From a virus, in IMG/VR virus record IMGVR_UViG_3300012953_006686, positions 1-64,000 of that record: DNA of 64,000 nt. One strand, written 5' to 3'. Both the position numbers and the translations under genes were made by a program. The notes beneath the pieces were generated by a model that saw only the letters and a list, made by a program, of their open reading frames with translations, made no database searches and had not been told where the DNA came from. How positions within the stretch are numbered: position 1 is the stretch's first letter; the number at the start of each line of letters is the position of its first letter. This document shows, piece by piece, positions 3,173 to 25,482 of the stretch.

Positions 3173-4384
3173 CTATAAGTCTATTCGCAATTTAAATGTA
3201 TAATCCTGATCTTCATCTTTTAGAATCGGATTAGACAATGTTGCAACACCAATTAAGTTTTTAGAATCATCATATATTGCAACGCGAGATATATATACCT
3301 GCCTCTTAAAAGAGGCACTGAGGTTAGAGTAGCTTGAACTCACCACATTTGTTATCTCTAGCAGGGAATTTTCTTCATAAACTTGAGAAGATGTGAAATT
3401 GGTCTTTTTTTGTCCGTATTTTATATACGTTGGATTGTTAGAATAATTAACTTCTCCTGCCCGAGCATGTGCAAACATAGTAACAACTTGCGTATCAGTC
3501 TGCCCTTTAAAATTTAATTTAAATGATGCAGACATATAATTGGAAGTGTTGCCGCTACCGGCTGTAGATGCTTGGCTTACTCCATCATAAGCGCCCGCGC
3601 CCCAAAATTTCCATGAAGGCTTGCTGGCTGTAGTCGAGCCGGCTGTCATCGGAATTGTTTCGCCGTTTAAAGCCCACGATCCAGTCAGGCAGATGAAGCC
3701 CTCTTCATATAAAATAACGCCCGCCACCGAGCCGCTACCCGTACTGCCGGCAGGTCCAACTTGAACTAATTCTCCGTTTTGCTTAAGATCTTGCAGCTCT
3801 CCTATTATAGAGCCGGTAAAATACCACTTTAACGACACTGTTCCTGGCTTGATTCTGTTGCCGTAAAATATTGACGGAATTGATATTAAATTTATAGTCT
3901 GAACATTTTTGTCGCCGAACGAAGACGAAACTTTATAGTGCGCACTTCTTGCTCCATAGAAATTTAATTTATTTTTTAAAGCAACAAAATGTCTATTGAA
4001 TTCACCAGTAGCAGAAGAAGACGGTGTAGTTATATATTCTCGATATATCGAAGCAGACATAGGATAACTGCTACTTATTGTATCGCCATATTGAAATTCG
4101 TTTGTATATGTTGTGGCGCCCACTGTTTTAAAACTTGCGCCGGAACCCTGCTTGGTTATAAAAGGATAGCTAAAGTTATTAGATCCCGATAGCTTATCAA
4201 TATTATATTCATATAAGCTAATGTGTCCTGGCTCTATATTTAAAACCTGCGGGCTAAAAGCTCCAGATAATTCAGGTTGATTATTATAGTATACCTTCGA
4301 ATCAAATATAAGGAACTCACAACTAGGGTAAGCCCTCATTGTGTTCGCGACTACATCATTTGGACCGAATTTTCTAAGCGACAT
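3173..4384 (-). CDS. Virion structural protein (baseplate/fibre-attachment type)
   Basis: Ser/Gly/Thr-rich. C-terminal NYSNNPTY...YISRVAIYDDSKNLIGVATLSNPILK...FKLRIDL domain is shared with the adjacent gene. Located in the baseplate module. Confidence 0.7.
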   Translation of the reverse strand: MSLRKFGPNDVVANTMRAYPSCEFLIFDSKVYYNNQPELSGAFSPQVLNIEPGHISLYEYNIDKLSGSNNFSYPFITKQGSGASFKTVGATTYTNEFQYGDTISSSYPMSASIYREYITTPSSSATGEFNRHFVALKNKLNFYGARSAHYKVSSSFGDKNVQTINLISIPSIFYGNRIKPGTVSLKWYFTGSIIGELQDLKQNGELVQVGPAGSTGSGSVAGVILYEEGFICLTGSWALNGETIPMTAGSTTASKPSWKFWGAGAYDGVSQASTAGSGNTSNYMSASFKLNFKGQTDTQVVTMFAHARAGEVNYSNNPTYIKYGQKKTNFTSSQVYEENSLLEITNVVSSSYSNLSASFKRQVYISRVAIYDDSKNLIGVATLSNPILKDEDQDYTFKLRIDL

Positions 4385-4388
4385 TGCA

Positions 4389-23474: not shown

Positions 23475-25482
23475 ATTCTTCTACTCGAAATATAAACGGT
23501 TCTCTTTGCTCTGTCCATGATTTTAATGATGGATCATAGAATGCAAATTTAAAACCATACGCGTATCCCGGCTCTAAAAGCCCCATGTCAAAATCAAAAT
23601 AGTTTCCTGATATATCATATGAAAGCCCAGTGGCAAGATTAGAGCCTGTTTCGTAAGCTACGGCCTCATATGCGTCCATCACTCTGTAAACTCTATAAGA
23701 TGCGCTTTGTATAGTTGTGCTTTCAACAGAAGTGTTTACTACCGTATACACATTTGGATCCCAGTGCTTGTGTCTAACAAACAAATTAAATCTAGCTGTC
23801 TCGTCACTTCTATACTTGTCTCTAAGATTTGTAATATTTAAATGATATACCGGTTTTCTGATAGTTTGTGACGCGCTAAAGTTTGTTGGATAAAACGACG
23901 ATGTAGCATACTCTACGCTCGCCCAGGGATTGTTTTTTCCTGCTCCATTGTGCCACACATCAAATATTTTTGTAAGCGGTGCTGCGGCTCCTGTGATGGC
24001 GAAAGAGGCACTATATACACCAGTCTCAACCCAAGCGCCAGTAACAACATAAGGATTTTTATCAGTAACCCAGTTTCGTGGAAGAGTTTCCGGAAGCTCA
24101 ATTGCAGCGCGGGTGTCTGCGCTAGATGATGCGGCTTGACCACTTGGCTCTGAATTATCATCAGAGCCTGAATAAAAACTAACATAAATCGGATCGCCAT
24201 TGTCACTACCATCAATACCAGGGATATCTCTTAATACTCCCCTAATATAGTTATACAAATAAAGTGTGTTGATGTTATCGTTGACCGGAGCAAGGGAGCT
24301 GCTGTAGTATGTATCTCCGCGATCATCTTTGATAGTCGAATCCCAACGTGCCTCAATAACAGGCTTCATAAAATAATATTGTGTGCCTCTTGCAAAAAAC
24401 CGTTTTGTATAATTAGAAATTGTAGAGCCAGTTGGATTTTCCAAATAACCAGTATAGATGCCGTCATCATCAACCGCGTAATATCCTTCTGCGGCGCCTG
24501 TCATGTGAATGCCAATACCGTAGTTGGCGATTGTTCCTGCATTCCATAGCTCAACAAGACCAGTTATATCAATCTCTAAATTTTCTAAACCAGTGGCGAA
24601 TGTTTGACTGTACCAGCGCCATGGATAAGCAGAGTTTGCAACGGTAATATAGTCGCCACCAACTTTGTCCCAAGGTGTGGCATTGTTTCCTGTTTGCTGA
24701 ACAACGATTGCAAGCCCATCAAGTGTTCCAACGATCGATGCATCAGTTGCTCCGCCGCCGATACTAGCTGTCACATAAATTATGCTCGAATCAGTAGGAT
24801 CAGGCTCGGCCGAAAAAGCGGATTGACCATTAACAACATTTCTAAAGCTAGCTGCAATAGAAGCCTTTGCCGCAGAAGCCGTTGCTATATTTATTGTAAC
24901 CTCTGTTCCCTCTGCTGAAGGCGCAGAGTCACCGGATCCGTCATTAAACCAAAAATTATATCTTGTGGCTGTGTTATATAATTTTATATAGTTGGCGCCG
25001 GCGCCGGCGCCATAATCAGCCAAGGTATCAGATGAGAATGTGAACTTGGTTATTTCTTGAAGATCTGCACTGTTTCGCATTATCCAATTAGAGCCAGTAT
25101 TACCATTTGTTACATCTTTATATGTTTCTAGATCTAGTCCTGGACCTTCTTCCCAGTCTTTAGACAAAGGCTCGACAACAATAGTATAATTTTCCGGCAC
25201 TGTTCTAGAGTGGGGCGCGTTGTATAGTTTTAAAATAAAATCTACACTTCCGCTAGCCGGAAGAATGCCATTGTTTCTGTCAGTAGTAATAGAGCCGATT
25301 GGGAACTTCATTAAAATACGAGATAGCTCAACTGAGCTTGTAGATTGACGACCATAAATAGAGTAAGTTTCTACAATATCTGAGGCGCCGGCATTTGAAC
25401 CAGTGGCTCTTAGCTCCAAGTCTGACTTATATGCATTTGTTATGGTATTGTCAGCATTAGCTACATATCTTTTTATAGCCAT
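23464..25482 (-). CDS. Virion structural protein (baseplate-associated beta-sandwich)
   Basis: 672 aa with DNTI, SRILMKF, WEEG.G, IDITGLVELW..G..NYG and P.IEARWD motifs, like DNRLRE-type domains of jumbo-phage baseplate proteins. Confidence 0.65.
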   Translation of the reverse strand: MAIKRYVANADNTITNAYKSDLELRATGSNAGASDIVETYSIYGRQSTSSVELSRILMKFPIGSITTDRNNGILPASGSVDFILKLYNAPHSRTVPENYTIVVEPLSKDWEEGPGLDLETYKDVTNGNTGSNWIMRNSADLQEITKFTFSSDTLADYGAGAGANYIKLYNTATRYNFWFNDGSGDSAPSAEGTEVTINIATASAAKASIAASFRNVVNGQSAFSAEPDPTDSSIIYVTASIGGGATDASIVGTLDGLAIVVQQTGNNATPWDKVGGDYITVANSAYPWRWYSQTFATGLENLEIDITGLVELWNAGTIANYGIGIHMTGAAEGYYAVDDDGIYTGYLENPTGSTISNYTKRFFARGTQYYFMKPVIEARWDSTIKDDRGDTYYSSSLAPVNDNINTLYLYNYIRGVLRDIPGIDGSDNGDPIYVSFYSGSDDNSEPSGQAASSSADTRAAIELPETLPRNWVTDKNPYVVTGAWVETGVYSASFAITGAAAPLTKIFDVWHNGAGKNNPWASVEYATSSFYPTNFSASQTIRKPVYHLNITNLRDKYRSDETARFNLFVRHKHWDPNVYTVVNTSVESTTIQSASYRVYRVMDAYEAVAYETGSNLATGLSYDISGNYFDFDMGLLEPGYAYGFKFAFYDPSLKSWTEQREPFIFRVEEYEY

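Follow-up and report, generated by a model that had tools for sequence, protein, structure and literature searches.

A serine tripeptide enriched in the outer tail proteins of marine myoviruses, a candidate O-glycosylation sequon associated with a hypervariable sugar island

The window analysed here comprises 64,000 nucleotides (positions 1 to 64,000) of the IMG/VR virus record IMGVR_UViG_3300012953_006686, a 93.7-kb contig. The source phage is abundant, uncultured and marine. All genes described below with window coordinates lie on the minus strand. Four of them encode proteins rich in the tripeptide [ST]-[GAS]-S, namely a 403-aa outer tail protein (3173..4384; 14 motifs versus 3.0 expected, z 6.5), its 378-aa paralogue, also an outer tail protein (4389..5525; 10 versus 3.3, z 4.0), a giant baseplate/fibre protein of 3088 aa (14208..23474; 45 versus 13.3, z 8.7) and a 672-aa protein whose gene directly follows that of the gp6-like wedge (23464..25482; 15 versus 3.1, z 7.2). 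Another motif-rich protein, of 789 aa, is encoded outside the window (contig positions 79926-82295; 17 versus 6.1). Expected values come from 2000 composition shuffles of each ORF, and outer tail proteins thus contain the tripeptide at 3-5 times chance, with z from 4 to 9. The initial annotation, counting by hand, had reported about 14 and about 10 matches in the two smaller proteins, ‘dozens’ in the 3088-aa and ‘many’ in the 672-aa protein, with about 3 expected for the 403-aa protein. Exact counting reproduced these figures, and the excess in the four window proteins remained large against shuffled controls (z 4.0-8.7).

Searches of the motif-rich proteins against Pfam and PHROGs returned nothing except a ConA-like/LamG domain at residues 200-388 of the giant protein (Laminin_G_3, E 7.6e-9), and a megablast of the region against cultured phages gave no match. 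Metagenomes contain more than 3,400 relatives of the 403-aa protein, which has no match in Pfam, PHROGs or the PDB. Apart from the paralogy of the 403- and 378-aa proteins, no similarity is detectable between the 403/378 family, the 672-aa, the giant and the 789-aa proteins. Enrichment beyond composition is therefore found in mutually non-homologous proteins, as would be expected of a sequon.

Other proteins of the same phage serve as internal controls. In the operon that continues from 25482 to 34718, the gp6-like wedge protein (598 aa; phrog_6, baseplate wedge, E 9e-25), the gp25-like protein (121 aa) and a 2343-aa protein are not enriched (0 versus 1.7, 0 versus 0.5 and 6 versus 4.7, respectively), in agreement with the sparseness noted initially. 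The six tail genes located among the motif-rich ones (5554..14177) encode proteins of 338, 888, 217, 180, 888 and 333 aa, which are rich in serine, yet not enriched (1 versus 2.1, 3 versus 2.3, 1 versus 2.0, 1 versus 0.2, 1 versus 4.1 and 2 versus 0.3 in the same order). Both 888-aa proteins are hypervariable among relatives (23-32% identity to their counterparts in genomes G001 and G003) and are probably receptor-binding parts. The rest of the contig proteome (89 ORFs in all) contains 44 motifs versus 42.4 expected (about 1.0x), and all other ORFs of the complete genomes G001 and G003 are also at chance level (116 versus 111.9 and 96 versus 96.3). The motif is confined to five to nine outer-virion proteins per genome.

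An unbiased ranking of tripeptides places TGS (17 versus 2.6), SAS (20 versus 3.7) and SGS (19 versus 4.0) at the top. The first position accepts only serine or threonine, the second favours glycine (5.4x) and alanine (4.5x) over serine (2x), and at the third serine is enriched (3.7x) whereas threonine is depleted (0.68x for [ST]-[GAS]-T). Since X-[GAS]-S, with X other than serine or threonine, occurs at about 0.9x and [ST]-[GAS]-X at about 1x, a dipeptide or low-complexity cause is ruled out; the enrichment requires all three positions and the motif is a true tripeptide. The serines of the motif use both the AGY and the TCN codon families, which places the constraint on the protein and rules out a cause at the DNA level. 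As claimed at the outset, the flanks are hydrophobic: at positions -2, -1 and +1 hydrophobic residues are enriched and charged ones depleted, aspartate being depleted beside the motif and absent from position -1. Spacing between motifs is irregular, so that the motif is dispersed and not tandem, again as first described.

An AF2 model of the 403-aa protein (pLDDT 74) places all 14 motifs in loops or at strand ends, including a two-residue hairpin; the motif is thus predicted to sit at loop/strand junctions between hydrophobic residues. Foldseek found nothing in the PDB at E<=0.001 with this model, the best VIA-align score (Z 5.1) was not above background, and BFVD offered no more than uncharacterised phage proteins and ConA-like hints. 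Nine of the 14 sites remain a motif in more than 85% of 120 homologues of about 60% identity, and exchanges at conserved sites stay within the motif class (e.g. TGS/TSS/SSS).

The window also carries a hypervariable sugar island of about 20 kb (40222..59871), recognized by Pfam. GT1/GT4, GT2 and Glyco_trans_1_2 domains together with nucleotide-sugar enzymes are found by Pfam between 41.8 and 62.4 kb of the window. The island genes code for a GDP-mannose 4,6-dehydratase, SDR epimerases, a DegT aminotransferase and a UDP-glucose dehydrogenase-like protein, as well as a methyltransferase, a B12 radical-SAM enzyme, split ThDP enzymes and several glycosyltransferases. Most of them have no counterpart in relatives, and none is shared by every motif-rich genome. 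The position of the island is nevertheless fixed: it always lies between a conserved 241-aa gene on the side of the structural module (39218..39943) and the gene of a 452-aa glycosyltransferase (GT452). The 241-aa gene, found in 24 of 24 island-bearing records searched and in 14 further mapped records, was the marker used in measuring island size.

At the head of the island lies a two-domain glycosyltransferase (58222..59871) with an N-terminal alpha/beta domain of about 290 aa and a GT2 domain (Pfam, residues 299-447; AF2 pLDDT 95), for which Foldseek retrieves GT-A enzymes and, across the two domains, the K4 chondroitin polymerase. Its N-terminal domain adjoins GT452 in 24 of 30 island-bearing marine contigs and in none of the five island-less ones. 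Neither the complete motif-rich genome G002 nor Microcystis phage Mel-JY01 nor Flavobacterium phage immuto (vB_FspM_immuto) yielded a match to this domain, which is therefore ruled out as a universal writer of the putative modification. Beyond the island, a pair of GT4-type glycosyltransferases (59855..62409; Pfam Glycos_transf_1) consists of the 452-aa enzyme (59855-61213) and one of 429 aa (61120-62409). Both genes are conserved side by side in G001, G003, G008, G010, Mel-JY01 and immuto. The pair is also intact in the clade that lacks both island and motif. The sole transferases conserved throughout therefore do not suffice for the motif, and the case for the pair as sole writer is weakened.

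Comparison of related contigs links the motif to the island. Motif ratios are 2.3-4.2x in all 31 contigs that carry an island (6-26 kb) and 0.9-1.4x in the five with none at that site. The motif and the candidate modifying genes therefore co-occur across genomes. The five island-less contigs belong to one sister clade (marker protein 51-100% identical), so this represents only one independent loss, and in that clade the motif has decayed to chance. One motif-rich contig in which the GT4 pair was not found, G009, is uninformative because its sequence stops 2.3 kb after the flank marker. Enrichment of the 672-like and giant proteins holds for 42 of 44 gp6-anchored loci, with upstream genes at about 1x, and homologues of the 672-aa protein are motif-enriched in 80 related loci. 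Island-less homologues of the latter (39-42% identity) contain 0-1 motifs and have KRK, DEA, EGE or gaps at the sites. Homologues of the giant protein are at about 3-4x in island-bearing and 1.4-1.6x in island-less relatives, and the 378-aa homologues of the island-less clade contain 3 versus 1.7 and 4 versus 1.4 expected. No substitute motif was found in a search of the island-less clade.

Two genomes at the same distance from G000 (46% identity of the gp6-like protein in each case) allow a site-by-site comparison. Of the motif sites in the giant protein, island-bearing G008 retains 15 of 45 and island-less G006 only 1 of 37; the serine of position 3 survives in 47% and 11% of cases, respectively, and serines outside the motif in 28% and 24%. 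Lost sites are occupied by K, R, D, E, N, T, G or gaps. Replacement by lysine, arginine, aspartate, glutamate or gaps in the absence of the island suggests that most sites are dispensable for the fold and are not conserved buried turns. Lineage-specific motifs of the giant protein occur at about twice chance in island-bearing phages (29-40 versus 12-16, p 2e-7 to 3e-3) and near chance in island-less ones, which points to selection on motif density and not just on fixed positions. In island-carrying phages the motif is kept by purifying selection together with a continual gain of new sites. To the initial annotation the motif had looked more like a selected modification sequon than like a structural repeat. 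Neither of the two outcomes that it named as refutations was observed: the excess is real, and island-less homologues have lost the motif. However, the 403-aa family retains roughly half of its conserved sites in the absence of the island (7 motifs versus 2.1 expected in G006, where five of the most conserved sites are kept), and a structural origin is possible for part of the signal.

The cultured distant relatives Mel-JY01 and immuto, which share the 403-aa family, show the same enrichment with the same position-specific profile, and both carry GT1/GT2 clusters. In T4 and PA5oct, tail, fibre and giant baseplate proteins carry the motif at about 1x, which rules out a generic feature of phage fibres; these two phages gave no GT1 or GT2 match above the Pfam cut-off. 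A search for independent cultured-phage lineages with the fibre-like proteins or GT452 found only immuto and Mel-JY01. We found no paper on the virion glycans of either phage, and a marine-phage proteomics study contains no data on phage glycosylation (PMC12014285).

The disappearance of the motif excess in relatives without the sugar island suggests that the tripeptide is probably a tag for attaching sugars to the virion, and the island-less pattern favours such a selected tag over a structural repeat. We estimate the probability that [ST]-[GAS]-S is a serine-directed O-glycosylation sequon of the outer tail at slightly above one half (about 0.55). Hydrophobic-[S/T]-[G/A/S]-S-hydrophobic would be read as a recognition tag by island-encoded glycosyltransferases, and glycans would be attached in the host cytoplasm to serines in putative surface loops of the baseplate periphery, the giant fibre protein and the small fibre-like proteins. 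The modification would be O-glycosylation, with the serine-only third position as the acceptor or key recognition residue, and the writer enzyme would be sought within the island rather than in the conserved GT4 pair alone. Hypervariability of the island could give each lineage a different glycan on conserved sites and hence a variable sugar coat, while the most distal hypervariable proteins, probably receptor-binding, would be left bare. Generalized to the whole clade of marine myoviruses of about 195-200 kb and its Flavobacterium and Microcystis relatives, this would amount to a ‘serotype’ system with more than 100 tail serines glycosylated via [S/T]-[G/A/S]-S, an island-varied glycan and bare receptor-binding tips, a proposal to which we give somewhat less than even odds.

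The tripeptide could instead play a structural part without any modification, as a small turn or strand cap that is rich in hydroxyl groups and typical of the beta-rich folds of fibres and baseplates in this lineage; the sister clade would then have evolved a different surface. The strong conservation of nine sites in the 403-aa family, the location of its motifs at strand ends and in a two-residue hairpin, and the five conserved sites that persist in G006 are all in keeping with this, as is the presence of the motif within regular repeats of fibre-like proteins (the 789-aa protein and the N-terminal part of the immuto spike) and in the YadA/Hep_Hag-like part of that spike, such repeats being typical of structural elements. 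We nevertheless regard this explanation as unlikely. Full-length homologues of 39-42% identity have the same domain layout but 0-1 motifs, with KRK, DEA, EGE or deletions at the sites, the loss is concerted over non-homologous proteins, and non-shared sites reach twice chance in island-bearing phages only. The motif occurs at about 1x in other serine-rich, beta-rich tail proteins of this phage and in T4 and PA5oct fibres, and a turn motif would normally tolerate threonine, asparagine or aspartate at position 3, where threonine is depleted here.

Alternatively, motif and island may be linked by ancestry or ecology only, one clade having changed both; the island would then modify phage DNA or the host envelope, and the motif would have its own role on the tail surface, e.g. 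weak glycan binding, protease resistance or a low-charge surface. Phage glycosyltransferase clusters are described as hypermodifying DNA or altering host surface glycans (PMC12619734, PMC12801897), the loss is a single event and the GT4 pair persists without the motif. This seems to us still less probable, because the association (31 of 31 versus 0 of 5) extends over lineages down to about 40% protein identity and to two distant cultured relatives, because serine-only specificity and constant density with turnover of sites are what an enzyme-read tag predicts, and because a binding role sits poorly with over 100 sites scattered across each virion proteome. Finally, the tag could direct another modification of serine (phosphorylation, phosphoglycosylation, acylation or ADP-ribosylation) by an enzyme that is not a glycosyltransferase, with the island only indirectly involved. 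Specificity for serine would suit many serine-directed enzymes; however, in the genome comparisons the sugar island was the one gene block seen to vary along with the motif, and we consider this explanation very improbable.

To our knowledge, virion glycosylation by phage enzymes has been experimentally established only in a few mycobacteriophages, and we know of no sequon for any phage. In the mycobacteriophages, phage-encoded glycosyltransferases O-glycosylate the virion (Freeman et al. 2023, Cell Host Microbe; cited by PMC12619734 and PMC12801897), and the glycans are placed by PMC12619734 at the C-termini of capsid and tail-tube subunits. The system proposed here would likewise use the phage's own glycosyltransferases to decorate its own virion proteins in the cytoplasm, possibly as a surface shield. 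It differs in that the candidate sites are tripeptides scattered over the outer baseplate and fibre proteins and number more than 100, in that the rest of each complete genome, necessarily including the capsid, sheath and tube genes, is at chance, and in that the sugar block is a hypervariable island of 6-26 kb and not a few transferases. C-terminal placement in capsid and tail-tube subunits is not seen.

The autotransporter heptosyltransferases Aah (substrate AIDA-I) and TibC (substrate TibA) are cytoplasmic, modify many sites on a beta-rich surface protein, act on serine and not on threonine, and target short inter-strand turns in peptides such as SASKV...NTSAAVSG (PMC4358343). The serine-only third position in our statistics matches this specificity; the putative substrates, by contrast, are phage tail proteins of several unrelated folds and not one beta-helix passenger domain. 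Among 26 island and flanking ORFs, Pfam detected no TibC/Aah-type (GT9-like) heptosyltransferase; five of them have no Pfam match at all, so that a highly divergent member could have escaped detection.

In Gram-positive bacteria, the GT4-type enzymes GtfA/GtfB and SdgA/SdgB O-GlcNAcylate serine-rich or Ser-Asp repeat adhesins. Resemblances are the adjacent GT4-type pair conserved throughout the lineage and candidate target serines beside small residues, whereas the candidate targets here are dispersed rather than in long tandem repeats and the pair persists where the motif has decayed. NCBIfam scores of the pair were 21.7 bits for SdgA and 18 bits for SdgB against cut-offs of 800, with no GtfA/GtfB match. 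General O-glycosylation in Bacteroidota is periplasmic and lipid-linked and uses the sequon D-(S/T)-(A/I/L/V/M/T). Like the present proposal, it involves a three-residue sequon on many unrelated surface proteins; however, the motif differs, aspartate is depleted beside the present one, and Pfam scans of the island found no flippase or oligosaccharyltransferase.

If the tripeptide is a sequon, glycosylated tails would be common among very abundant ocean phages, and the sugar-gene blocks of marine phages, usually read as devices for modifying the host surface or DNA, would need rethinking. Conserved sites combined with a hypervariable island would point to selection on the phage surface itself, where possible pressures include adsorption to decoys, grazing, enzymes and host surface defences. 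The hypothesis is directly testable on the two cultured relatives.

Internal stops flagged in matches of GT452 are overhang artefacts, the open frames being full length. The GT4 pair is flanked by a PD-(D/E)XK nuclease gene (62417..63181; PDDEXK_1, E 1e-18), which probably does not belong to the system; its synteny is kept in all compared genomes, and it was used only as a marker.

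The comparison with composition-shuffled sequences (2000 shuffles per ORF) revealed a large excess of the tripeptide [ST]-[GAS]-S in four tail proteins, all encoded on the minus strand: the 403-aa protein (3173–4384; 14 observed versus 3.0 expected, z 6.5), the 378-aa protein (4389–5525; 10 versus 3.3, z 4.0), the giant 3088-aa protein (14208–23474; 45 versus 13.3, z 8.7) and the 672-aa protein (23464–25482; 15 versus 3.1, z 7.2). The hand counts of the initial annotation, which had singled out the same proteins, proved exact, and the scarcity of the motif that it reported in the gp6-like (0 versus 1.7), gp25-like (0 versus 0.5) and 2343-aa (6 versus 4.7) proteins was borne out. 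The contig (IMG/VR, 93.7 kb, the window being its first 64 kb) has an estimated completeness of ~51%, 89 ORFs in all and nearly all genes on the minus strand; its non-enriched rest carries 44 motifs versus 42.4 expected. An additional enriched ORF of 789 aa (locus L088; contig 79926–82295, minus strand; 17 versus 6.1) lies outside the window; it looks fibre-like, contains internal repeats (LSASLGLSGSSLIVGTAT near residues ~250 and ~535) and has no match in Pfam, PHROG or PDB sequences. Also outside the window, a 139-aa ORF on the plus strand (contig 88414–88833), where the other genes are all on the minus strand, has 8 motifs versus 2.5 expected and is possibly a spurious antisense frame.

The 598-aa protein is the gp6-like baseplate wedge, and the genes following it are consequently outer baseplate and fibre genes. 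Pfam and PHROG searches identified nothing in the motif-rich proteins but the ConA-like/LamG domain of the giant one. The 403-aa and 378-aa proteins are paralogues, and their family is common to two distant cultured relatives, Microcystis phage Mel-JY01 and Flavobacterium phage vB_FspM_immuto (NC_055915). For the 403-aa protein, the AF2 model (pLDDT 74, core >85) has no convincing match in the PDB; it places all 14 motifs in loops or at strand ends, as at the two-residue hairpin T190-G191, after which S192 starts the next strand. Metagenomes contain >3,400 relatives of this protein, with Tara Oceans contributing many. A set of 120 (~60% identity) averages 11.4 motifs versus 2.5 expected and keeps nine of the 14 sites in >85% of sequences; swaps remain within the motif class (for example TGS, TSS, SSS and SGS at one site). 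Two 888-aa tail proteins (6606–9272 and 10516–13182, minus strand) are serine-rich yet motif-poor (3 versus 2.3 and 1 versus 4.1, respectively); they share just 23–32% identity with their counterparts in the related complete genomes G001 and G003, and are therefore probably receptor-binding parts. Small fibre-like proteins of 155–425 aa in these genomes (G003, 166992–179017; G001, 190420–191088) are motif-rich too and have a common segment, SGS-T-x-FG-N/D-x3-D-x-H-x-R/F-TGS; a tblastn search of cultured phages found no relatives of them.

An unbiased ranking of tripeptides places TGS, SAS and SGS highest among those with real counts. Serine and threonine are enriched at position 1 (3.6- and 3.8-fold), glycine, alanine and serine at position 2 (5.4-, 4.5- and 2.0-fold) and serine at position 3 (3.7-fold), where threonine is depleted (0.68-fold). 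Since X-[GAS]-S with X other than S or T also stands at ~0.9-fold, the excess requires all three positions. Positions 1 and 3 both draw on the two serine codon families, so the constraint acts on the protein. As first described, the motif is irregularly spaced, not tandem, and has hydrophobic flanks: hydrophobic residues are enriched at −2, −1 and +1 (44 versus 26.6 at −1), while charged residues are depleted, with no aspartate at −1.

The motif could be a generic feature of phage tails, and this is ruled out by phage T4 (gp5–gp12, gp18, gp23 and gp34–37) and by the tail, wedge and 3857-aa giant proteins of PA5oct, all at about 1×. Five genomes of this phage's lineage (the present contig, the complete G001 and G003, Mel-JY01 and immuto) have only four to nine enriched proteins each; the rest, where the capsid, portal, sheath and tube genes must lie, is at or near 1.0× (1.2× in immuto). 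The position-specific motif profile is shared by Mel-JY01 and immuto. Both have GT1 and GT2 matches above the cut-off; T4 and PA5oct have none.

Between 41.8 and 62.4 kb are encoded a GDP-mannose 4,6-dehydratase, several SDR epimerases, a DegT aminotransferase, a UDP-glucose dehydrogenase-like protein, a methyltransferase, a B12 radical-SAM enzyme, split ThDP enzymes and several glycosyltransferases. The sugar-gene island itself (40222–59871) has a fixed insertion site, with a conserved 241-aa gene (39218–39943) on one side and a likewise conserved GT4-type pair, GT452 and GT429 (59855–62409), on the other. A PD-(D/E)XK nuclease gene adjoins the pair, as it does in Mel-JY01 and immuto. Island genes are mostly unshared with the related contigs G001, G003, G008 and G010; across these and 26 other contigs island size varies between 6 and 26 kb and hardly any gene content is common, and one deep clade is empty there. 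The island behaves like a hypervariable cassette locus.

Anchoring on the gp6-like protein, which has at least 586 hits in IMG/VR, we fetched 80 more loci, of which 44 were usable; in 42 of these the downstream proteins stand at 2.3–4.7× and the upstream genes at ~1×. The values are 1.4× for L150 (contig G006; 145 kb, 80% complete) and 1.2× for L180 (G007). When the 486-aa protein of L150 was used as query, both proved to belong to a deep clade (51–100% identity), all members of which are at 0.9–1.4×, while every relative outside it is at 2.7–4.2×. With island size taken as the spacing of the two flank markers, 31 motif-bearing contigs had an island of 6–26 kb; the five motif-less contigs of sufficient length for this measurement (G006, G007, G050, G051 and G052) all had only 0.6–0.9 kb between the markers and are thus without island. 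In homologues from island-less phages the motif excess is largely gone, and G006 has essentially no enriched protein genome-wide. The GT4 pair is intact in this clade (GT429 ~52% identical; GT452 ~39% identical, 389 aa, HGEGFGLP segment kept), so it does not maintain the motif alone. As the island-less phages form one clade, the link between motif and island rests on a single event.

In the island-less clade, the ~490-aa homologues of the 672-aa protein align over their full length with the island-bearing ones (39–42% identity), and at the motif sites they have KRK, DEA, EGE, LGS or deletions of two residues. For the giant protein a direct comparison is possible because G008 (island) and G006 (no island) are equally diverged from our contig (gp6-like protein 46% identical in both). 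Its motif sites are still motifs at 15 of 45 in G008 versus 1 of 37 in G006, where many are gaps; position-3 serine is retained at 47% versus 11%, and non-motif serine at 28% versus 24%. At the motif sites of these two proteins charged residues and deletions are thus tolerated, as would be expected of fast-evolving surface loops, and the sites are kept only in phages that carry the island. Non-shared motifs in the giants of two island-bearing phages reach about twice whole-protein chance (29–40 versus 12–16) and are near chance in island-less giants, which argues that density is selected, not just position.

A structural role would account for some of the signal. The 403-aa family retains 7 motifs versus 2.1 expected in island-less G006, at five of its most conserved sites; the 378-aa family drops without the island to 3 versus 1.7 and 4 versus 1.4. 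In fibre-like proteins the motif recurs within regular repeats. The S-T-A-S-G of YadA/Hep_Hag head repeats is structural. Residues ~804–1003 of the immuto 'tail spike' (L084:35287–38448, 1053 aa) match such repeats of trimeric autotransporter adhesins (BpaC, PDB 7o23, E 6e-10), and its N-terminal part is built of consecutive hexapeptide-like repeats, x-[ST]-[AG]-S-[YF], and GDGSxLTG motifs. Part of the motif signal is consequently probably structural. The initial annotation had preferred a modification sequon to a structural repeat; given the excess over shuffles and its decay without the island, a sequon, as predicted from sequence, is still the best-supported explanation, with a probability of roughly 0.55.

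Closest in working to such a system are the autotransporter heptosyltransferases, which are cytoplasmic, act on many sites and modify serine in preference to threonine (PMC4358343). The phage system would act alike, but is not a member, as their GT9-type domain was not seen in the island ORFs scanned. Mycobacteriophage virion glycosylation is likewise similar without including the phage system: as described in papers citing that work, its sites are C-terminal tails of capsid and tube proteins, which the sites considered here are not. The GT4 pair resembles SdgA/SdgB only at scores far below threshold.

At the island head, the best candidate is a two-domain transferase (58222–59871, minus strand), whose AF2 model (pLDDT 95) has a C-terminal GT2 domain and resembles K4 chondroitin polymerase across both domains. 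Its N-domain (~290 aa) occurs in relatives as a GT2 fusion (~540–558 aa) or a stand-alone gene (~280–330 aa), always adjoining GT452; this arrangement is seen in 24 of the 30 marine contigs with an island and in no island-less one. The N-domain is absent from the complete genome G002, Mel-JY01 and immuto, so it was rejected as a universal writer of the motif. In Mel-JY01 (PP395634, 83441–84932) the GT429 counterpart is divided between two ORFs (190 and 302 aa), which may reflect a genuine split, a frameshift or an error in sequencing.
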